Assembly: GCA_002310415.1 (NCBI GenBank)
Contig: DBYN01000001.1
Location: 4,332-68,331, forward strand
Origin: Alphaproteobacteria bacterium UBA1185
Lineage (GTDB): Bacteria; Pseudomonadota; Alphaproteobacteria; Rs-D84
Length of the DNA stretch: 64,000 nt
Direction of reading: 5' to 3'
The notes beneath the pieces are model-generated. The model searched no databases. It worked only from the letters and a program-made list of their open reading frames with translations, and was not told where the DNA came from. Shown piece by piece: positions 39,024 through 49,380 of this stretch; position 1 is the stretch's first letter, and every line of letters begins with the position of its first letter. The position numbers and the translations under genes are program-made.

Positions 39024-39660
39024 AAAATTTATTGCGTTTCTTTAACCAATCAATTGATGTTTCCATACCATGTCCATGAATAACCCATGTTCCATTTGGC
39101 AAATCTTTTTTGTATAATTTGCCAATAGATTCAAATAATTGTTTTTCATCGCCACCCGGAAAAGCGGTATTACCATAACTTTCTTGGAATAAAGTATCAC
39201 CAACCAGTAAAATGTTATATTTTGGAAAATAAAACATTAAACCACCAGGTGTATGACCCGGGCTTTCCATTACTTCCATATCCATACCAGGCAAAATTTC
39301 AATTGTCCCAAATGGTATATTTTTTGGTTTTTTATAATCTGGTGCAATTTGTGGAATATTAAACATATCTAATAGTCCATTTCCCCAACCAATTAAAAAA
39401 TTATCTTTTTCATTTAAAAACCAATCAACATTAAATTCGCGTGACAATGCCGGAGCGGCGGCTATATGGTCAGGATGTCCATGTGTCGCATATATCGCAC
39501 GTAATTTTAACCCACGTTCCGATAAAACATTTTCCCAATCAAATGCCCGACCCCACGCATCAAAAATCACAGCATCATCACCAACAGATACCAACACAGA
39601 AACGGTATTTTCAGGTGGCATACGCAAAAGTTCAAATTTTACAGCATTATTTTTTGGCAT
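39013..39660 (-). CDS. MBL-fold metallo-hydrolase
   Basis: Start set at MPKNNAVKF (ATG at 39658-39660), which overlaps the ftsH stop by 14 nt. ATHGHPDHIAAAP is the HxHxDH motif, and a later ESPGHTPGG is present. Confidence 0.8.
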   Translation of the reverse strand: MPKNNAVKFELLRMPPENTVSVLVSVGDDAVIFDAWGRAFDWENVLSERGLKLRAIYATHGHPDHIAAAPALSREFNVDWFLNEKDNFLIGWGNGLLDMFNIPQIAPDYKKPKNIPFGTIEILPGMDMEVMESPGHTPGGLMFYFPKYNILLVGDTLFQESYGNTAFPGGDEKQLFESIGKLYKKDLPNGTWVIHGHGMETSIDWLKKRNKFFKA

Positions 39661-41593
39661 TTGTTTTTTTAGATGCGGATTTTGTAGCTGTCTTTTTGAC
39701 TGTTGCCTTTTTACCAAAAACAATTTCTTTGATTTCTTCACCAGACAAAGTTTCTTTGTCCAATAATGCCTGTGCCAATTTATCAACAACTGCTTTACCT
39801 TTGGTCAATATAGATTTGGCATCTTTGTGTGCATTATCTAACCAATCGCGAATTTCATTATCAACAATTTCTGCTGTCTTTTCAGAAGCATTTTCCAATG
39901 CAATTCTTTGACCAAAAGTATTTGCTTGATTGACAGCAACCAAACCAATTTTATTTGACAAACCAGCAGTTGTTATTGAATAACGAGCCAAACGCGTAGC
40001 CATCGCAATATCACTTTCCGCACCAGTTGTTATTTTATTTGCACCAAAGAATATTTCTTCTGATGCACGTCCCGCCAACGCCACAGCCAGATTTGCCTGT
40101 ACTTCATCCAAAGTCATAGATACTTTGTCATCAATCGGTAAATGTTGCACCATACCCAAAGCGCGACCACGCGGTATAATTGTCGCCTTGTGAATTGGAT
40201 CTGTTATATCTTTGTAATGCAGACTAACGAACGCATGCCCTGCTTCGTGATAAGCGGTCAATTTAATATCTTCTGGGCGCATCTTGCGGTTCTTTTTTGG
40301 TCCCATTAAAATTTTATCGCGCGCTTCTTCTACATCACTTTGCTCCACAACCTTGTGTTCGCTGCGTACCGCATGCAACGCCGCCTCGTTCAGCAGATTT
40401 TCCAAATCTGCACCAGAAAAGCCCGTTGTACCACGCGCAACATCCATCATATTTACAGATTCACCAATTTTAAATTTTTTCGCATGCAAATCTAAAATTT
40501 CACGACGACCTTCCAGATTAGGTAATTCTATGTTTATCTGTCTGTCAAAACGACCAGGACGCAACAATGCGGCATCCAACATATCAGGACGATTTGTTGC
40601 AGCAATAACAATTATACCTGTATCATTCGCAAAACCATCCATTTCAATCAACAATTGGTTCAAAGTTTGTTCGCGGTCATTATCGTTTAACGAATGTTTA
40701 CTTCTGCTTTGGCCAATCGCATCAATTTCATCAATAAATAAAATACAAGGCGCATTACGTTTTGCCAATTCAAAAATCTCTTTGATTTTTGCGACACCTA
40801 AACCAACAATTATCCCCGAAAAATCACTGCCTGATGTGGCAAAGAACGGAACATTTGCTTCACCAGCAACCGCACGTGCCAACAAAGTTTTACCCGTTCC
40901 TGGTTCACCAGACAACAATATACCACGTGGAACACGAGCCCCAAGTGCTTTGAATTTGGCTTGATTTTTCAAAAAATCAACAACTTCCATCAATTCTTGT
41001 TTTTCAGAATCTATACCTGCAACATCTTTGAAAGTCGTTTTCGTTTTTCCTGTGGTAATTTTTGTTGGGTTTTGACCAATCAAACTACGTGTAATGCCGC
41101 CACTACCACCAGCGGCCCCGCCACGCATTAAACGCAACAACCAGACAAAAAATAAAACCCCAACTACAATCGGTACCCATCTGGCAATTACATCAAATAA
41201 AGAATCTCGATTACTGATTGATACAGTTGCACCATTTTTAGAAATCTTTTCCAACAATTCAGGATTATAAGTAATCGTAGCCCTATATGGGGTACCATCT
41301 GATAATCTGCCTGTTGCAACATTATCACGATTAATTTCCATTGTTTTAATATCTGATGCTTTGCGTAATACATCTGAAAAAGATAATTCGATTGGTGCCT
41401 TGATGGTTTTGCCATCAATATCATTTGTTTTCATTTCCCCAACAAACAAAACCCGCGCAATCAACGCAATAAAAAGGGCAACAAATACCATCAAATAAAA
41501 CTTTGAACCATCTTTCTTATTTGTGTTAAAACTATTGCTTTTTCCGTTTTTCATATCTTTTCCTAAAAGTTGTTCTTTTTCCTTCGGGAACAA
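39647..41593 (-). CDS. ftsH: ATP-dependent zinc metalloprotease FtsH
   Basis: Two N-terminal TMs. AAA+ Walker A GEPGTGKT and Walker B ILFIDEIDA, the SRH region, and the zinc site HEAGHA. Start is ambiguous (41593 or ATG 41554). Confidence 0.95.
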   Translation of the reverse strand: MFPKEKEQLLGKDMKNGKSNSFNTNKKDGSKFYLMVFVALFIALIARVLFVGEMKTNDIDGKTIKAPIELSFSDVLRKASDIKTMEINRDNVATGRLSDGTPYRATITYNPELLEKISKNGATVSISNRDSLFDVIARWVPIVVGVLFFVWLLRLMRGGAAGGSGGITRSLIGQNPTKITTGKTKTTFKDVAGIDSEKQELMEVVDFLKNQAKFKALGARVPRGILLSGEPGTGKTLLARAVAGEANVPFFATSGSDFSGIIVGLGVAKIKEIFELAKRNAPCILFIDEIDAIGQSRSKHSLNDNDREQTLNQLLIEMDGFANDTGIIVIAATNRPDMLDAALLRPGRFDRQINIELPNLEGRREILDLHAKKFKIGESVNMMDVARGTTGFSGADLENLLNEAALHAVRSEHKVVEQSDVEEARDKILMGPKKNRKMRPEDIKLTAYHEAGHAFVSLHYKDITDPIHKATIIPRGRALGMVQHLPIDDKVSMTLDEVQANLAVALAGRASEEIFFGANKITTGAESDIAMATRLARYSITTAGLSNKIGLVAVNQANTFGQRIALENASEKTAEIVDNEIRDWLDNAHKDAKSILTKGKAVVDKLAQALLDKETLSGEEIKEIVFGKKATVKKTATKSASKKTNAKK

Positions 41594-42515
41594 TCAAAAT
41601 TCGATTGTTAAATCTGCGAATCGTACAATGCCCCAACGTGAATTGACAATCACTTTGTAATTTACATAGTGCTTGCTGTAAAGAATTCAAGCGCGGTAAA
41701 TAATCATCACCACCAATCTTTTGAATTGCCAATCCCAATAACTTTAATCTAATTTCGTCCGCTTCGTCAAACAAAAAAGATTCCGCGAACATCGTCCCCC
41801 ATGGTCGTAAAATAATTTCCAATCGGTTTGTGATGTATTTATCCATCCATTGACGTGTTCGCCCCAAATTTTGAATTGCTAACAGTATTCTGGAATCACT
41901 TATACCCAAATTATCATTTAACAACTGTCTGTTTTTACGAATTTTTACCCTGGTATAATGTTCATCACTGTTCATTGAATCAACAAAATATTTAATATGA
42001 TTATCATCACAATATTGTTGTATTTCTTCACGAGATACATCCAACAATGGGCGTAAGATTTTAATCCCATTGCGCAAAGATTCTTGCATCATACCAGATA
42101 AACCATATAAACCACTGCCCCTAGATAAATTCATTAAAAATGTCTCAATTTGATCATCACTTTGATGTGCAGTCAACAAATATTCTATTCCATTTTGTGC
42201 ACAAAAATCTGTCATCATTCTATAACGATTTTCACGTGCAGCCGCTTCCAGACCTGATTTTGGTTTATCCCCGTCCCATATAAAAACATGACAAGGAATA
42301 TTTAATTTTTTACAAATATCTTGAACATAACTTGTTTCCGTATCGGCTTCTGGTCGCAATTTATGGTTAACATGTAAACAAACAATATCCGCCCCAACTT
42401 CATGTAACCAATAAAGTAAACACACAGAATCAACGCCACCACTGACACCAACAGCCATTTTTTTGCCTTGATATTTACGCATAAAATCTTTAAATTTTGT
42501 ATTCATAGTAAACAT
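41532..42515 (-). CDS. tilS: tRNA(Ile)-lysidine synthase
   Basis: PP-loop VGVSGGVDSV. The tilS-ftsH gene order is typical. Confidence 0.85.
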   Translation of the reverse strand: MFTMNTKFKDFMRKYQGKKMAVGVSGGVDSVCLLYWLHEVGADIVCLHVNHKLRPEADTETSYVQDICKKLNIPCHVFIWDGDKPKSGLEAAARENRYRMMTDFCAQNGIEYLLTAHQSDDQIETFLMNLSRGSGLYGLSGMMQESLRNGIKILRPLLDVSREEIQQYCDDNHIKYFVDSMNSDEHYTRVKIRKNRQLLNDNLGISDSRILLAIQNLGRTRQWMDKYITNRLEIILRPWGTMFAESFLFDEADEIRLKLLGLAIQKIGGDDYLPRLNSLQQALCKLQSDCQFTLGHCTIRRFNNRILIVPEGKRTTFRKRYEKRKKQ

Positions 42516-42556
42516 ATTTTATGGTATAATTTCGAAAAATAAAGGAAAAAGACAAA

Positions 42557-43138
42557 ATGGCTCATAAAATCAAATCAGTAGCAGTCTATTGTGGACACGA
42601 AGACGGTAACAACCCAGAATATGCACGCGATGCACGCAAAATTGGCGAATTATTGGCACGAAATAAAATCACTTTTGTATTTGGTGGGGGAAACGTGGGT
42701 TTAATGGGCGCCGCCGCGGAATCCGCATTACAAAACGGCGGTGAAGTAATTGGTATATCAACACCACACGTAATGTCAAAACAAGAACCCGTTCTTGAAG
42801 GTATAGACACAAAAATAGTCGACGGAATAAGTGCCCGCAAAGAAGAAATGTTTGATTTATCCGATGCTTTTATCATTTTGCCGGGCGGAATCGGGACGTT
42901 GAATGAATTGACAGATATACTGACCAAACAACAAGTTGGCGAATCTTGTAAACCTATTATATTTATGAACACCGCAAAATATTGGGATTTTTTGGGACAA
43001 GTAATGACACATATGGATCACGAAGGTTTCATTGAAAGCATGGACGATTACAACATAATTGTTGCAAACACCCCCGAAGAATTGATACGGAAATTATTGG
43101 ATGACGACAATCTTGTTACGACTTGTCGCACCCTTTGA
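42557..43138 (+). CDS. LOG family protein (TIGR00730-type, cytokinin riboside 5'-monophosphate phosphoribohydrolase-like)
   Basis: VYCGHEDG, FGGGNVGLMG and PGGIGTLNEL motifs. Confidence 0.8.
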   Translation: MAHKIKSVAVYCGHEDGNNPEYARDARKIGELLARNKITFVFGGGNVGLMGAAAESALQNGGEVIGISTPHVMSKQEPVLEGIDTKIVDGISARKEEMFDLSDAFIILPGGIGTLNELTDILTKQQVGESCKPIIFMNTAKYWDFLGQVMTHMDHEGFIESMDDYNIIVANTPEELIRKLLDDDNLVTTCRTL

Positions 43139-43324
43139 AATCACAATTCGCGACTTTGCAATTGACAAATATTCAGATAATAAATCAATAACCGCCCTGT
43201 TGGCACGACCATTTTCAGGGGCGGTCGTAGTATACACACGTAAAACATCGCCATCTAAAACAACTTTGTTTTGCTTTGCATGGGGAATTACACGTATATT
43301 AAAAATCTTCTTGGAATCGTTCAT
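43094..43324 (-). CDS. DUF167 (YggU-like) family protein
   Basis: RVIPHAKQNKV..LRVYTTTAPENGRANRAVIDLLSEYL...KGATSRNKIV is the typical UPF0235 pattern. Confidence 0.7.
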   Translation of the reverse strand: MNDSKKIFNIRVIPHAKQNKVVLDGDVLRVYTTTAPENGRANRAVIDLLSEYLSIAKSRIVISKGATSRNKIVVIQ

Positions 43325-43646
43325 CGCTCATAATATGGATATGAAAATGCATAACAGATTGCCCTGACCCACGCCCAGTATTTGCAACAGTTCTGAAATT
43401 ATTATTCAAATTTAATTTTTCAACAGTATTACGAAAGCCTTTCCAGAATGCTGTTTGTTCTGTGACAGATGCATTTTTTGTAAAATCCATGATATCAGTA
43501 TATTCGCCACGCGGTATTACCAACACATGCACACGCGCACGTGGTGACACATCATAGAAAGCCAATACATTATCATCACTGTAAACAGTTTTATTTGGGA
43601 TTTCACCACGTAAAATTTTGGCAAAGACATTATTTTTATCATACAT
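43299..43646 (-). CDS. HIT family (histidine triad) protein
   Basis: Start set at MYDKNNVFAKILRGEIP. HVLVIPRG and the histidine triad QSVMHFHIHIM are present. Confidence 0.85.
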   Translation of the reverse strand: MYDKNNVFAKILRGEIPNKTVYSDDNVLAFYDVSPRARVHVLVIPRGEYTDIMDFTKNASVTEQTAFWKGFRNTVEKLNLNNNFRTVANTGRGSGQSVMHFHIHIMSDERFQEDF

Positions 43647-43723
43647 TATACACACCTTTGTTTTACAACTAAATAATACAATCAAAATAAAGAAAAAATC
43701 AAGTCATGAAATAATTTTTTAAT

Positions 43724-44323
43724 TTACCATTCCATACGTTTTATAAATCTGATAACCGTAGTATATTGAACATTCATGACCTTGGCAATTTTATATGCAG
43801 ACATACCAGAATCTAATAACCTGCGCACTTTTAAAGCATTATCGGTCATTTTTAATTTTTTTGATTGCGCAGACAACGGCCGCCCCAAATGCTTACCAGC
43901 AGCACGAATATTATCTAATGACGATTTTGTACGTTGACTGATAAGTTGCCTTTCAATTTCTGCCGATATACCAAATGCGAAAGCCATAACTTTTGATTGT
44001 ATATCATCGCCTAATTTGTAACTTTCTTTGATGGTCCAAACCTGACAATTTTTATTCAAACAATTTTCTAATATACGCATAACTTCCAACAAAGAACGTC
44101 CCAACCGAGATATTTCGGCCGATATTAAAATATCGTTTGCCTGTAATTCATTTAATAATTGCCCCAGTTGTCGTTTATGTAACGGCTGTCGCGAAGAAAT
44201 AGTTTCTTTGACCCACATATCTATTTTAATATTATTCCGTTTAGCAAATTGTTGTATTTCAAATCGCTGATGTTCAACAGTTTGTTTATTTGATGATACA
44301 CGAATATATCCAATAATCGACAT
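43724..44323 (-). CDS. Small serine recombinase (resolvase/invertase family)
   Basis: 199 aa. IGYIRVSSNKQ carries the catalytic Ser context. ISRLGRS and the Arg-rich E-helix region are present. The C-terminal HTH is GMSAYKIAKVMNVQYTTVIRFIKR. Confidence 0.85.
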   Translation of the reverse strand: MSIIGYIRVSSNKQTVEHQRFEIQQFAKRNNIKIDMWVKETISSRQPLHKRQLGQLLNELQANDILISAEISRLGRSLLEVMRILENCLNKNCQVWTIKESYKLGDDIQSKVMAFAFGISAEIERQLISQRTKSSLDNIRAAGKHLGRPLSAQSKKLKMTDNALKVRRLLDSGMSAYKIAKVMNVQYTTVIRFIKRMEW

Positions 44324-44587
44324 TTTATAACTCCTTGATATTAAAGATTTTTTTTGATATTTTTTCTTGTATTTTAATAGTACGTTTAAATCAACATATT
44401 TTTTAATTTTTTTTTCATTTTTTATTTTACATACAAAAAAACCAGAAAACCGGCTTTTTTTGAATCTTTATAAACTTCATGTCAACATATACTAGCGTTT
44501 GTTACACAAACGTACCTTTGTGCAACAATTATTTTTGTAACGATAATTCGTTTACTTTTTAATTAATTAAAAACAAAGGAAAACAAA

Positions 44588-46540
44588 ATGAAAAAAACTT
44601 TATGTTTAACATCCTTGCTTGCAATTATGGCAACCAATGCTGCAATTGCAAATACAGATGTAACTTTTGGTGGTAAATATTTATTGCCAGATGGGACAGA
44701 AGCAAACGTCAGCACAAATGTTGGCGACACCACATATACCTATACTAAAACTGATGGTTCCAATGCGACCGCAGCATATGATGAAGACCCAAATTTAACA
44801 TATTTTACATATACAAACAAAGATGGTATTACCGCTAATTTATCATCTGGAACTGGTTTGACACAATCTGATTTTAATGCAGACAGTGCCGCAACAGGTG
44901 ATGTAATAACAACACAAACAATAGCAGCAGGCGAAACCGCAGATAGAGCAAATTATACATACGTAAATGGTAAAGGTAATACTGTTGTATTGGGTGACGC
45001 TAAACAATCTTTCACAGAATCATACAATTTATTAACAGGTTTACCAATTTCTAACGATTATACTATCGCATTGGCTGATAATTATATCACCTCTGTTGAT
45101 GTCACAGATGGCACACCAGATAACACTTTGGATGGTACACACTATATTTTACATGCATCTAATAACAATGATTACAGACTGAACGAAGACGGAACTGAAA
45201 TCAGAAAAGTCAGCGACGGCAGTATTGTTAATATTGCAGATTTTCCAGATATAAGTTCAGAATTAACTGCTTTACAAAATGCATACACTTCAGATGTCTC
45301 TGCAATCAACAATTTGAGAACACAAACCGGTGACTGGGCCGCCGATGAAACAACAGCATGGGGGACCGCTGATACAATATTTAATACCGATTCAAATAAA
45401 ATTAACACATTGAATGGATATTATACAGAATACACCGATGCATTAAGCGCATTGGATGCAGCAAATTCAGCAAAAGCAGATGCTGTTGAAGCAAATACAG
45501 AAAATATTGCCTATCAAACCGCTGCACGCGATTTGTATAATTCATCAATTGAAACGACATTAGCAAGTGTAGAACAAAATGCCAAAGATTACGCGGACAA
45601 TTTGGCATCTAATTATGATGCAGCAGGTTCTGCAAATACTGCTGAACAAAACGCCAAAGATTACGCAGACAATTTAGCATCTAATTATGATGCAGCGGGT
45701 TCTGCAAATACTGCTGAACAAAATGCCAAAGATTACGCAGACAATTTGGCATCTAATTATGATGCTGCCGGAACATCTGCCACAGAAACCGCACGTGCAA
45801 CAGCAGAAGAAGCATCTATTCGTTCGGATTTTGCGACTGCGGATACTGCGACATTAACTGCTGCAAATGGTTATACAGATACGGCTGTATCGGTCGAAGC
45901 AGCACGTGTTGATGCAACAATGGGTACAATCCATGGATTGGTTGGAAACGCAAACGCACCTACAACATCTAATGGTAAAAAATACAATGGCAACTTGGCA
46001 GTTGGTACAACAGTTGAAGACCATTTATTAGCATTAGATGATTCAATCGGTGACAGAAGAACCTTGAACGGTAATCATGTGTCTAAATCTGTTTCCGTTG
46101 TTGAAAACCTGCAATCTTTGAATGACGATTTAGATGCAGAAATTGCACGTGCAACAGCAGAAGAAGCATCTATCCGTTCAGATTTTGCAGCTGCTGATGC
46201 TTTGACTTTAAACCAAGCAAAAGCATATGCAGATAACATTAATGCATTGAACTTGCAGGCGGCCAAATCTTATACAGATGAACGTATTCAAAAATTAGAC
46301 AAAGATTTGTCTGCTGGTATCGCCAGTTCTGTTGCTTTATCTTCTGTATCTGTATCAAATGTTCAAAAAGGCGAAGTATCCGTCGGTGCAGGTTACGGAT
46401 TATATAACGGTCAATCCGCAATGGCATTTGGTGCAGCAATGGGCTTGTCTAACAACTGGTCTGTAAATGCCGGTGCCGGAATTTCTAATTCGGATTTTTC
46501 GTTCCGCGCAGGTACAAATTATAAATTCAAATTATTTTAA
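44588..46540 (+). CDS. Trimeric autotransporter adhesin (YadA-like C-terminal anchor)
   Basis: Signal peptide MKKTLCLTSLLAIMATNAAIA. A Thr/Asn/Asp-rich passenger is followed by repeated stalk motifs (ARATAEEASIRSDFA.AD twice). The C-terminal anchor is AGIASSVALSSVS...SVGAGYGLYNGQSAMAFGAAMGLSNNWSVNAGAGIS..FRAGTNYKFKLF. Confidence 0.85.
   Translation: MKKTLCLTSLLAIMATNAAIANTDVTFGGKYLLPDGTEANVSTNVGDTTYTYTKTDGSNATAAYDEDPNLTYFTYTNKDGITANLSSGTGLTQSDFNADSAATGDVITTQTIAAGETADRANYTYVNGKGNTVVLGDAKQSFTESYNLLTGLPISNDYTIALADNYITSVDVTDGTPDNTLDGTHYILHASNNNDYRLNEDGTEIRKVSDGSIVNIADFPDISSELTALQNAYTSDVSAINNLRTQTGDWAADETTAWGTADTIFNTDSNKINTLNGYYTEYTDALSALDAANSAKADAVEANTENIAYQTAARDLYNSSIETTLASVEQNAKDYADNLASNYDAAGSANTAEQNAKDYADNLASNYDAAGSANTAEQNAKDYADNLASNYDAAGTSATETARATAEEASIRSDFATADTATLTAANGYTDTAVSVEAARVDATMGTIHGLVGNANAPTTSNGKKYNGNLAVGTTVEDHLLALDDSIGDRRTLNGNHVSKSVSVVENLQSLNDDLDAEIARATAEEASIRSDFAAADALTLNQAKAYADNINALNLQAAKSYTDERIQKLDKDLSAGIASSVALSSVSVSNVQKGEVSVGAGYGLYNGQSAMAFGAAMGLSNNWSVNAGAGISNSDFSFRAGTNYKFKLF
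45572..45770 (+). repeat. 72-nt in-frame tandem repeat (~2.75 copies) inside the adhesin gene
   Basis: Units start at 45572, 45644 and 45716 and encode EQNAKDYADNLASNYDAAGSANTA. Copies differ at only a few, mostly synonymous, positions. Confidence 0.9.
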
Positions 46541-46563
46541 TATAATTTTGATTTTATAAAGAC

Positions 46564-46597
46564 AAATCCGCTGAATTTTAATTCAGCGGATTTTTTT
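46564..46597. terminator. Bidirectional terminator between the adhesin gene and the methyltransferase remnant
   Basis: The 11-bp stem TCCGCTGAATT-TTA-AATTCAGCGGA is flanked by an A-rich run and a T run. Confidence 0.75.
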
Positions 46598-46850
46598 CAA
46601 AAACAAATATAGCAGCCTTTTGACCTGATAATAAAATATCATATTTTGCAATTAACCCAAAAGCGCTTGGAATATTTTGCATTTTTTCTTTCTGGGCGGT
46701 CAACAATACCAATCTACCTTTTGGTTTTATAACACGTAACAATTCCGCAAATATTAAATCATAAAAGTTATCATCTATATTTTGAAAATACCCCCAAGGT
46801 GGATCGGTAACAATTACATCAATAAAGTTATCTTGAAAAGAATTATGCAA
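46578..46850 (-). pseudogene. Truncated class I methyltransferase (C-terminal part only, DPPW motif IV)
   Basis: IDVIVTDPPWGYF is motif IV of N6-adenine/N2-guanine type methyltransferases. The frame has only ~16 codons upstream before an in-frame stop (46899-46901), no ATG and no SAM-binding GxGxG motif. The tracked start is TTG. Confidence 0.6.
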
Positions 46851-46906
46851 AAAATCTGCAAATATTTTTTTACCCCCAGAAACAAAAGTAGATAAATATC
46901 ACATTG

Positions 46907-47665
46907 TTATTTTTTTCTATGTAATTCTTTGAATTCATTTGCAGTTATTCCACTTTCTACATGAAACAAATTGAATTCGCTATCCATATCGCGTAATTGT
47001 TTAACCATTATATCTTCAATTTCTTGACGTTTTTTTTCCAGTGCTTCACCATGCAAAGATGCATCAACATAAATGGGTGCACCAATATTAACAGTTATTG
47101 TTCCAAATAATTTTGGAATTAATAACCTGTCCCAACGATTAAGAAGATGCGCACGCGATGCAGAAAAACAACACGGAACAATCGGTGCCCCAGTCATACG
47201 CGCAAAATACAAAGCACCATTTTGAACATGCAAAGCAGGTCCACTTGGCCCATCAACAGATATACAAACTGACCGTTTTTTTTCACGAATAACACGCACA
47301 CCTTCACGTAAAACAGAAACAGCACCTTCGGATGTACTGCCATAAATCGGGCGCAAACCGAAAAACTTCTGTAACTGCGCCATCATTCGACCATCTTTAT
47401 GCCGCGAAGTAACACAATATGCCGGTACACCCGCACATTTAATGGTCGGTGACAACATTACAGTTCGACCATGAAAAAACACAAAAATAACAGGCTTTTT
47501 ACGATACTGCTTTAAAGATTTAACATTTGTAAAACGATGCTTTGATGTAAAAAATATAAACCATATCATCAATGCAACCAACCCCATCAAAACCCATTGA
47601 ATAACCGGGCTACGTAAAATTGGTCGCCAAAATTTTTTCCAAATTCTTTTGAATATTTTTTTCAT
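46907..47665 (-). CDS. DUF374 / lysophospholipid acyltransferase-like family protein
   Basis: N-terminal TM. FFHGRTVML, SRHKDGRMMA, GSTSEGAVSVLRE and VDGPSGP are typical DUF374 motifs. Confidence 0.7.
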   Translation of the reverse strand: MKKIFKRIWKKFWRPILRSPVIQWVLMGLVALMIWFIFFTSKHRFTNVKSLKQYRKKPVIFVFFHGRTVMLSPTIKCAGVPAYCVTSRHKDGRMMAQLQKFFGLRPIYGSTSEGAVSVLREGVRVIREKKRSVCISVDGPSGPALHVQNGALYFARMTGAPIVPCCFSASRAHLLNRWDRLLIPKLFGTITVNIGAPIYVDASLHGEALEKKRQEIEDIMVKQLRDMDSEFNLFHVESGITANEFKELHRKK

Positions 47666-47763
47666 AACAATGACATATTATCAATAAAAACCTTAAAATG
47701 CAAGAACAGCAGATTATGCAAACACATAACATGCTGTTCTTTAATTTATCTACAAATATAACC

Positions 47764-49380
47764 TTACATCATTCCTGGCATACCACCACTCTGTGGTGAC
47801 ACAGGTTTTTCTTCTGGGATTTCATTCATAACTGCCCCCGTTGTCAATAACAACCCAGCGGTCGACGCAGCGGCCTGAATTGCGGTTTTTACAACCTTTG
47901 CCGGATCGATAATTCCAGATTTCATCATATCAACATATTCATCTGTTTGAGCGTTATATCCAAAGTTATATTCTTTGTTTTCCATGATTTTTCCAACAAC
48001 GATTTCACCAGATACACCTGCGTTTTCAGCAATCTGCATACATGGCGCAACAATTGCTTTGCGAACAATATCAATGCCGACATTTTGATCTGTGTTATCA
48101 CCTTTGATATCCGCAAGTGCACTAACAGCACGCACCAAAGCAACACCACCACCCGCAACAATGCCATCTTCCACCGCAGCACGAGTAGCAGCCAAAGCAT
48201 CGTCAACACGGTCTTTCTTTTCTTTAACTTCCACTTCCGTCATGCCCCCAACATGAATTACTGCGACACCACCAACCAATTTAGCCAAACGTTCAGCCAA
48301 TTTTTCTTTATCATATTCACTGGTTGCGTTAGATAATGTTTGGCGAATTTCATCTGCACGATTTGCAATTGCTTCTTTATCACCATTGCCATTAACTAAC
48401 AAAGTTTTATCTTTGGAAACAACAACACGTTTCGCACCACCCAACACAGCAGGTGTGATATTATCAAACGTCATTCCCATATCATCGGATATAACCGTTG
48501 CACCTGTAACAATTGCGATATCTTTCAACATTTCTTTACGTCTATCGCCAAAACCTGGTGCTTTGACAGCACATACTTTTAATCCGCCACGCAAACGGTT
48601 TAACACCAAAGTCGCCAACGCTTCACTTTCAACATCATCTGCAATTATCAACAAAGGACGACCAGATTGAGCAACTGGTTCCAATATTGGCAATAATGCT
48701 TGCAGACCCGTAATTTTCTTTTCAGAAACCAAAATTTGAGCATTTTCCAATTCTGCCAACATTTTCTCACTGTTTGTTACAAAATAAGGTGACATAAAAC
48801 CTTGGTCAAATTGCATACCTTCAACAATATCAATTTCTGTATTTAAACCTTTGGCTTCCTGAACAGTGATAACACCTTCTTTACCAACTTTGTCCATAGC
48901 ATCAGCAATCTTTTGTCCAATTTCTGAATCACTGTTTGCAGAAATTGTCGCAACTTGTGCTATTTCAGAAGAATCTTTAACAGGACGAGCGTGCTTTTCT
49001 ATATCCGCCACAACAGCATTAACCGCGATGTCAATACCACGTTTAATATCCATAGGATTCATACCCGCAGCAATAACACGTCTGCCTTCGCGGAAAATAT
49101 TTTGTGCCAACACGGTCGCGGTCGTTGTTCCGTCCCCTGCACTGTCGCCCGCACGTTTGGCTACTTCCTGAATCATTTTTGCGCCTATGTTTTCAGCGGG
49201 GTCTTTCAAAGACACTTCCTTGGCCACAGTTACACCATCTTTGGTAGCGATTGGCGCACCATATGGGCGTTCAATAACAACCGTACGTCCCTTGGGCCCC
49301 ATAGTAATTTTTACGGCATTTGCCAATTTATCAATACCAGATGCTAATTTATCTGTATTAAAAACAATATCTTTTGCCAT
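47764..49380 (-). CDS. groL: Chaperonin GroEL
   Basis: MAKDIVFN..., [13 protein letters not shown], and the C-terminal GGMPGMM tail. Confidence 0.97.

Follow-up and report, generated by a model that had tools for sequence, protein, structure and literature searches.

The window, that is, the whole stretch of DNA that was analyzed, comprises 64,000 nt of contig DBYN01000001.1 from Alphaproteobacteria bacterium UBA1185. This bacterium is a member of Rs-D84, a genome-reduced order containing Candidatus Enterousia-type relatives (PMC12306168). The source assembly (853 kb, 78% complete) derives from a bovine rumen metagenome. The locus studied here consists of a small serine recombinase gene, whose product is called P0001, and a divergent gene for a trimeric autotransporter adhesin. 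Between them lies an AT-rich gap of 264 nt (44324-44587), which holds two short recombination sites and, enclosed by these, a 130-bp segment whose orientation is the main subject of this analysis (Table 1).

Table 1. Coordinates of the recombinase-adhesin locus in the window and of the orphan switches on other contigs (C3, C9) of the same genome
Feature	Position	Strand	Basis
Small serine recombinase gene P0001, 199 aa	43724..44323	-	Pfam Resolvase, HTH, NCBIfam NF009949
Proximal recombination site TTGTATTTTAATAG-TA-CGTTTAAATCAACA, centre TA 44381-82	44367..44396		Family conservation; partner switch in L116/L117
Invertible segment, 130 bp between centre dinucleotides, unique interior 44388-44507	44383..44512		Inverted in L116/L117
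Distal recombination site TTGTTACACAAACG-TA-CCTTTGTGCAACAA, centre TA 44513-14	44499..44528		Sequence; partner switch in L116/L117
Fixed 5' leader of adhesin gene: hairpin 44537-44555, U5, Shine-Dalgarno AAAGGAAAA	44529..44587	+	ViennaRNA folds
Trimeric autotransporter adhesin gene, 650 aa, presumed cargo	44588..46540	+	Pfam YadA_anchor E=1.8e-10; translation
Orphan switch	C9:44294-44452		Core-pair scan; inverted in L115
Orphan switch	C9:16900-17034		Core-pair scan; N run between cores
Orphan switch	C3:129665-129793		Core-pair scan; N run between cores

The recombinase, the adhesin and the DNA between them

Residues 3 to 144 of P0001 match the Pfam Resolvase domain (E=1.4e-31), and a helix-turn-helix (HTH) follows at approximately residues 147 to 198. 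The motif YIRVSS contains R8 and S10. These two residues and the other catalytic ones, R73 and R76, are conserved, and the motifs YIRVSS and SRLGRS are kept at a level of at least 90% across 20 aligned family sequences. Both parts of the small-serine-recombinase layout, an N-terminal catalytic domain with a serine nucleophile and a C-terminal HTH, are intact, in agreement with the resolvase/invertase layout that the initial annotation of this DNA had given the protein. The same annotation had described the AT-rich gap and the divergent trimeric autotransporter gene beyond it, and both are confirmed: the adhesin open reading frame (ORF) encodes a signal peptide and a YadA anchor at residues 593 to 647. 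In its stalk region, a 72-bp tandem repeat occurs 2.7 times with 95% matches (45572-45765). Orthologous adhesins are between 510 and 677 aa long, so the number of repeats and the length of the passenger vary between strains.

The best profile match of P0001 is the NCBIfam family NF009949, the "master DNA invertase Mpi family", with 264.6 bits (264 in the genome search). This is below the curated cut-off of the family, a whole-protein score of 272 bits. Nine close homologues score between 265 and 277 bits, three of them above the cut-off, and some carry the Mpi family name at NCBI; among 14 control genomes, the cut-off is passed in Bacteroides thetaiotaomicron only. Judged by its sequence, P0001 would thus be a borderline case that belongs to the Mpi family or stands at its edge. 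The nearest solved structure is that of the Gin invertase (4m6f, E=6e-9); PDB entries of the gamma-delta and Tn3 resolvases match weakly (E=5e-7 to 2e-4). The Hin/Gin/Pin-type comparison drawn in the initial annotation is not upheld: the family is Mpi-like, and the genome (78% complete; no enhancer search was made) gave no match to a Fis-type HTH_8 protein, while seven control genomes do. The lack of a Fis-type protein means that a Fis-dependent mechanism of the Hin/Gin type is not supported.

A core common to the two recombination sites, GTACGTTT / AAACGTAC, surrounds a central TA. The proximal site has its outer half on the side of the recombinase gene and its centre 57 nt upstream from the ATG of that gene. 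The distal site is a near-perfect 30-bp palindrome with its outer half towards the adhesin gene; the palindrome CGTTTGT-TAC-ACAAACG that had been noticed earlier at 44496-44512 is present and overlaps the inner half of this site. Within the segment there are many A/T tracts, a conserved box, CAACATATACTAG (44483-44495), and an A7-hairpin-T7 element (44437-44460). The orientation found in the window is referred to as state A. Each site is a dyad. State A has a homotypic palindrome at both positions, and state B has hybrid sites with exchanged inner halves.

Taken by itself, the 8-bp core does not exceed chance, as 224 of 500 shuffled versions of the intergenic region contain a perfect inverted repeat of at least 9 nt. 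Its significance comes from the comparison with other loci, not from the window alone. The spacing of A/T tracts in the segments peaks at a lag of 9 to 11 (z of about 9 to 10 against shuffles), a value that is indicative only, as the sequences are related. A periodicity of 10 to 11 bp might fit intrinsic bending of a very short loop, and is likewise only indicative. Palindromes beside the distal site are seen in the window and in three orthologous lineages. A second dyad at this position was considered as a feature of the family and rejected (mean best arm, 3.7, versus 3.5 in shuffles).

Both orientations of the segment in natural populations

Natural populations of this species and its relatives contain the segment in both orientations. 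Contigs from other samples were found via an exact match to the HIT protein encoded near the recombinase gene. Two of them, L116 (ERZ28633640, 49.8 kb) and L117 (ERZ27298450, 26.6 kb), encode a recombinase identical to P0001 (199/199 residues). They have the same gene order as the window (adhesin, switch, recombinase, HIT, LOG, TilS, FtsH), and their flanks are 98.5 to 98.8% identical to it. In both contigs, the block 44380-44515 is reversed relative to these flanks, with 98.5% identity, and the sequence changes partner exactly at the proximal and distal sites. The two state-B junctions are found at L116:1606-1667 and L116:1735-1796. The end points of every inversion seen fall at 44380-87 and 44508-15. 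The orientation of the recombinase gene relative to the HIT and adhesin genes is constant, and only the 130 bp of intergenic DNA invert. Because the repeats of 8 to 13 bp are far below assembly k-mers, the junctions must be present in the reads.

Inversion is also seen beyond this species. In the next species, the loci L108 and L109 have an identical recombinase (P0003), and one is exactly inverted relative to the other between the 13-bp repeats AAAGGAACGTTTA / TAAACGTTCCTTT; the syntenic loci L099 to L101 and L105 to L107 have the segment in opposite orientations. Eight of the adhesin-linked loci are in state A and seven in state B. Contigs break at the sites in L006, L012, L083, L101 to L104, L110, and L119, the last of which begins at GTACTATTAAAA, and in L027 a state-B junction leads into a state-A segment. 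Such breaks and junctions are the expected behavior of an assembler on mixed populations. Scans of a metagenome collection yielded no match to the predicted proximal junction of state B and, for a pattern that fits the distal junction of either state, matches to unrelated DNA only, but this locus is absent from the collection and the negative outcome carries no information. The general marks of an inverton were found, namely, inverted repeats, both orientations in populations, and an adjoining gene; the support from within a sample is indirect and comes from the orphan switch in L115 compared with the same-study assembly (see below), the contig breaks, and L027.

The arrangement at the window recurs in a family of loci. 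Eighty loci with recombinase relatives (66 to 76% identity) were compared, of which approximately 56 were parsed for sites. In nearly all 80, the gene upstream of the recombinase is divergent and approximately 170 to 290 nt distant. The parsed loci have a common layout, in which the recombinase gene is preceded by the proximal site (41 to 67 nt upstream of the ATG), beyond which come a segment of 110 to 145 bp, the distal site, and the divergent gene. The proximal site of the family reads gGTTGATTTaATCG-TT-CTATTAAAttGAcc, and the distal site, adjoining the divergent gene, has the consensus aCACAAACC-AA-CGATTGTGt. Approximately 42 of the parsed loci are in state A and 14 in state B, and the near-identical loci L013 and L014 have opposite segments. 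Across species, the module sits in differing genomic contexts, with at most five recombinase copies per genome among the relatives and usually one per switch.

The divergent gene, by contrast, varies. It is a homologue of the window adhesin in 13 loci (510 to 677 aa) and something else in the others; adhesin orthologues are also present in the syntenic loci L099, L105, L106, and L116. Surface proteins predominate in the cargo of relatives, which comprises autotransporters of both the trimeric and the classical type, pilin-like proteins, an Opacity-like barrel protein, a C5 DNA methylase, and numerous exported proteins whose family is unknown. Autotransporters, barrel proteins, pilins, and DNA methylases are the usual targets of phase variation.

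Based on these observations, we interpret the locus as a DNA-inversion switch in which an Mpi-like serine recombinase gene adjoins, and lies outside, a 130-bp invertible segment, and we give this interpretation a probability of about 0.85.

Orphan switches and a second recombinase in the same genome

Three further pairs of the core, AAAGGTACGTTT ... AAACGTACCTTTAAA, were detected by scanning the whole assembly; none has an adjoining recombinase gene (Table 1). The gene behind each of these orphan switches encodes a large protein with a signal peptide (1277, 764, and 523 aa), and two of the three proteins show a weak match to the Listeria-Bacteroides repeat. The interior of the 1st switch on C9 (44294-44452) was compared with L115, an assembly from another run of the same bovine-rumen project. 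It is identical after reverse complementation (129/129), with flanks of 312/312 and 400/400 identical positions. At the other two switches, runs of N (C9:16917-17016, 100 nt; C3:129677-129785, 109 nt) start and stop exactly at the AAAGGTACGTTT / AAACGTACC cores. These two are among only five long N runs in the genome and are probably unresolved assembly bubbles arising from mixed orientations.

Among 150 genomes of the genus, no other had the orphan core pair. The 9-mer GGTACGTTT and the TA centre are common to the orphans and the sites adjacent to P0001 in the window, while the site centre is AA/TT in 53 of 56 related recombinase-linked loci. Moreover, the outer halves of the orphans match the proximal outer half of the switches of the closest relatives, AACG-TT-CCTTTAAAA. 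The occurrence of the same rare core variant at the adjacent sites and at the orphans points to a single system. P0001 would then probably flip the three orphan switches as well, acting as a small-scale master invertase like Mpi.

The genome encodes a second Mpi-like recombinase (C6:19774-20391), which is intact, 205 aa long, and 47% identical to P0001 and scores 253.4 bits on NF009949. This paralogue has its own perfect 13-bp inverted repeat, GGACGTTTAAATT (20382-94) / AATTTAAACGTCC (20459-71), around a 64-bp segment, which was found in a single orientation in three assemblies. Its half-sites and those of the orphans are alike (AAACG-TC-CCTTAAAT in the C6 repeat and AAACG-TA-CCTTTAAAT in the orphans).

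Further along the same contig (C6:19774-22072; L090:4774-7072), the repeat is followed by a recombinase-like gene without R8, S10, and the RLGR motif and then by a glycosyltransferase gene. This region is a candidate for a second switch, located before a sugar-transferase locus. Among the relatives, the cargo of three loci (L007:4194-4811, L010:1-221, and L033:4211-4828 on the minus strand) is a recombinase-like gene without the catalytic serine (MIYGMILLEHN...). The product resembles the dead C6 paralogue and may have an accessory or regulatory role in inversion systems.

Mechanism, alternatives, and known systems

In the proposed mechanism, P0001 would bind both sites as dimers, cut the central dinucleotide via Ser10, rotate the inner half-sites, and thereby flip the segment. 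P0001 is taken as the catalyst because it is strictly linked to the switch in approximately 56 loci and because the chemistry of serine recombinases is well established. The segment would hold a promoter or another orientation-dependent transcription signal, so that the adhesin is on in one orientation and off in the other. A promoter is expected by analogy with Mpi and ipuS/UpaE. Recombinase expression may alter simultaneously, as the ATG is only 57 nt from the proximal site and transcription of the gene may depend on the orientation. On the strength of these analogies, control of the adhesin, and perhaps of the recombinase, by segment orientation seems reasonably probable. The conserved box CAACATATAC(T/A)AG is directed towards the adhesin or other cargo gene in state A, a weak hint that the orientation in the window might be ON. 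Downstream of the segment (44515-44587), ViennaRNA folds of the window leader and five orthologous leaders show a hairpin stem pair that varies between A-U, G-C, and G-U, and base pairing is possible between the Shine-Dalgarno region and CCUUUGUG, the outer half of the distal site. The leader hairpin or this pairing may form an attenuator or translational element.

A broader and tentative reading joins these parts. The recombinase, two unlike dyad sites, and the 130-bp segment would form a portable, self-contained phase-variation cassette, placed by the lineage before many surface, pilus, and restriction-modification genes. A directional bias could result from the homotypic and hybrid states of the sites, the cargo and the recombinase could toggle oppositely, providing feedback on the switching rate, and the copy in this genome would in addition be the master invertase of the three orphans. 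We regard this combination as possible but doubtful.

Several observations weigh against the interpretation as a switch driven by P0001. The core in the window has only 8 bp (10/12 with flanks) versus 13 bp in the closest relatives, and the proximal outer half is CTATTAAAA versus CCTTTAAAA in these relatives. All three assemblies from the study that produced the window (the window, L004, and L005) are in state A. No sigma-70 promoter was found above the scan threshold in the segment on either strand, nor did manual comparison of orthologous segments reveal a conserved -35/-10 pair on either strand. As a consequence, transcriptional control of the adhesin is argued from analogy only. Finally, the C6 paralogue, having similar half-sites, could be the enzyme for the orphan switches.

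The missing promoter speaks for an alternative view, in which the inversion is real and carried out by the adjacent recombinase, but the adhesin promoter is not in the segment. The orientation would then affect recombinase expression, an orientation-dependent terminator or protein site, or translation through the 5' leader. The short distance of the proximal site from the recombinase ATG fits this view, since the promoter of the recombinase gene may be inside the segment or extend across it, as do the A7-hairpin-T7 element, the conserved leader hairpin with its U5, and the possible pairing of CCUUUGUG with the Shine-Dalgarno sequence. However, the cargo varies by locus while switch and recombinase persist, and it is of the kinds that are commonly phase varied. 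The orphan switches, moreover, keep the same design before secreted-protein genes without having a recombinase gene to regulate. Control by these other routes is rather unlikely, although it is more plausible than two further alternatives that concern the inversion itself. In the proposal of the initial annotation, the recombinase gene lies within a Hin-like invertible segment (43681-44378) bordered by an imperfect A/T-rich inverted repeat (43681-43703 / 44353-44378). A 24-nt match with 75% complementarity does exist at these positions, but it is an A/T-homopolymer match, one of 157 inverted-repeat pairs in 1.8 kb. Its best gapless 23-nt alignment (17/23) is equalled in 66 of 300 shuffled flanks, which is chance level, and the repeat is not a recombination site. 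With the observed inversion ends at 44380-87 and 44508-15, and the orientation of the recombinase gene constant, this alternative is extremely improbable. What stands of the earlier proposal is the invertible element beside the recombinase, as seen in L116, L117, and dozens of loci, with the true segment at 44383-44512. Equally improbable is that P0001 is a resolvase or mobile-element remnant, acting in the resolution of transposon or plasmid cointegrates, with the intergenic repeats unrelated to it. The resolvase fold, the weak gamma-delta and Tn3 structure matches, and the varied genomic contexts would agree with such an origin. Against it, there is no transposase among the nine annotated ORFs of the neighborhood (39647-49380), as the initial annotation had also stated, and the base composition of the locus is similar to that of the remainder of the window. 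Synteny of the chromosomal region is retained in related species, Mpi is the best-matching family, and the sites are inverted rather than direct and have been observed to invert.

It is also conceivable, though we consider it the less probable option, that P0001 acts on its own adjacent switch only and that the orphans are flipped by the C6 paralogue or another enzyme. The paralogue is intact, has a 13-bp repeat of its own with half-sites resembling those of the orphans, and in most relatives there is one recombinase per switch, with no more than five copies per genome. In contrast, the shared 9-mer and the unusual TA centre connect the orphans to the sites in the window, against the AA centre of most related loci and the absence of the core pair from the other genus genomes examined. 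The orphan outer halves match the proximal outer half of the closest relatives, and the C6 repeat keeps to one orientation in the three assemblies. These points favor P0001 as the enzyme for both its own switch and the orphans.

Among known systems, the closest resemblance is to Mpi (Ssr2) of Bacteroides fragilis, a single enzyme that controls 7 to 13 promoter inversions (PMC4747536, PMC10403206). Mpi, like P0001, is a small serine recombinase of approximately 200 aa, and its family gives the best profile match. In both cases, short intergenic invertible segments with short inverted repeats lie before genes for surface structures, and several switches per genome share one core, three of them here without an adjoining recombinase gene. 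The core may also resemble the repeat consensus of B. fragilis, a point that carries no weight in this analysis. The present system differs in that the recombinase gene lies directly beside a switch at a fixed distance, with usually one copy per switch in relatives. It also differs in its host, a genome-reduced alphaproteobacterium rather than a member of the Bacteroidales, in its cargo of outer-membrane proteins and adhesins rather than capsule operons, in the two unlike dyad sites of the local switch, and in the score of P0001 just under the family cut-off.

In Escherichia coli CFT073, the 260-bp element ipuS has 7-bp inverted repeats and an internal promoter and makes the autotransporter UpaE phase variable; the repeats of fimS in E. 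coli have 9 bp (PMC6083910). The ipuS system shares with the window a recombinase gene beside a short invertible element and an autotransporter adhesin as cargo. Unlike P0001, IpuA and IpuB belong to the tyrosine recombinases; the recombinase gene contains one of the ipuS repeats, and UpaE is a classical rather than a trimeric autotransporter. The fimS element with FimB and FimE is similar in that an invertible promoter element beside recombinase genes controls a surface adhesin and in that its two end sites are unlike, which could bias direction, whereas FimB and FimE, too, are of the tyrosine type. The element, which is 314 bp long, depends on IHF and Lrp. Hin, Gin, Cin, and Pin are small serine recombinases with a C-terminal HTH and dyad sites with a central dinucleotide, as here. 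Their genes lie inside or at the edge of a segment of 1 to 3 kb, and they use a Fis-bound enhancer. The locus in the window differs from them in its 130-bp segment, the recombinase gene outside it, the lack of a Fis-type match, and the weak sequence similarity. It differs from the Tn3 and gamma-delta resolvases in its inverted sites and inversion, with no transposase in the annotated neighborhood.

The locus is, in sum, an inversion switch of a known kind with a recombinase-linked cassette layout and three likely trans targets in this genome. No report of such a switch was found in the literature for this Rs-D84 gut lineage. Candidatus Enterousia and other Rs-D84 bacteria are widespread and uncultured in gut and rumen, have genomes below approximately 1 Mb, and are presumed to depend on a partner (PMC12306168). 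The text of that paper contains no mention of "invert-", recombinase, adhesin, phase variation, or autotransporter. In the present records, the relatives bear the name Candidatus Enterousia or uncultured Alphaproteobacteria. Their small genomes devote as many as five recombinase genes each to flipping short switches before adhesins, autotransporters, barrel or pilin-like proteins, and a DNA methylase, which points to strong selection on the surface, be it from host immunity, phage, or the choice of partners. As a measurable readout, the proportion of the two orientations could be tracked in metagenomes, and a likely enzyme for the orphan switches can be named. Compact pairs of invertase and sites, with 130-bp segments and no detectable Fis homologue, could also serve as small genetic switches.

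Neighboring genes and additional sites

The genes flanking the locus have housekeeping functions, with HIT, LOG, TilS, and FtsH on one side and DUF374 and GroEL on the other. On the minus strand at 46578-46850, a 90-aa ORF matches only the C-terminal part of a UPF0020/RMKL-type methyltransferase. A full-length gene of this type, encoding 334 aa, is present behind the recombinase gene in L108 and L109. The 90-aa ORF is probably a gene remnant from a rearrangement around the module.

On another contig of the same genome (C4:25392-25627; L089), a distal site of the common family type, CACAAACC-AA-CGATTAAAACAACA, with a state-B-like inner half, lies before a lipoprotein-like gene. The site is 195 nt from the contig end, and no proximal site or recombinase gene follows it. 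Either its partner was lost in an assembly gap or the site is a remnant.

Symmetric orphan sites of the common family type were searched for in 60 relatives, where the number of matches was at control level. Two of the matches look real (G018:C6:28390-28523 in L097 and G020:C3:18287-18422 in L094). Both segments have distal-type outer halves (CCAACG...) on either side, with one inner half of the TTGTG type and the other of the AAATCAAC type, and they may be switches between two divergent cargo genes.

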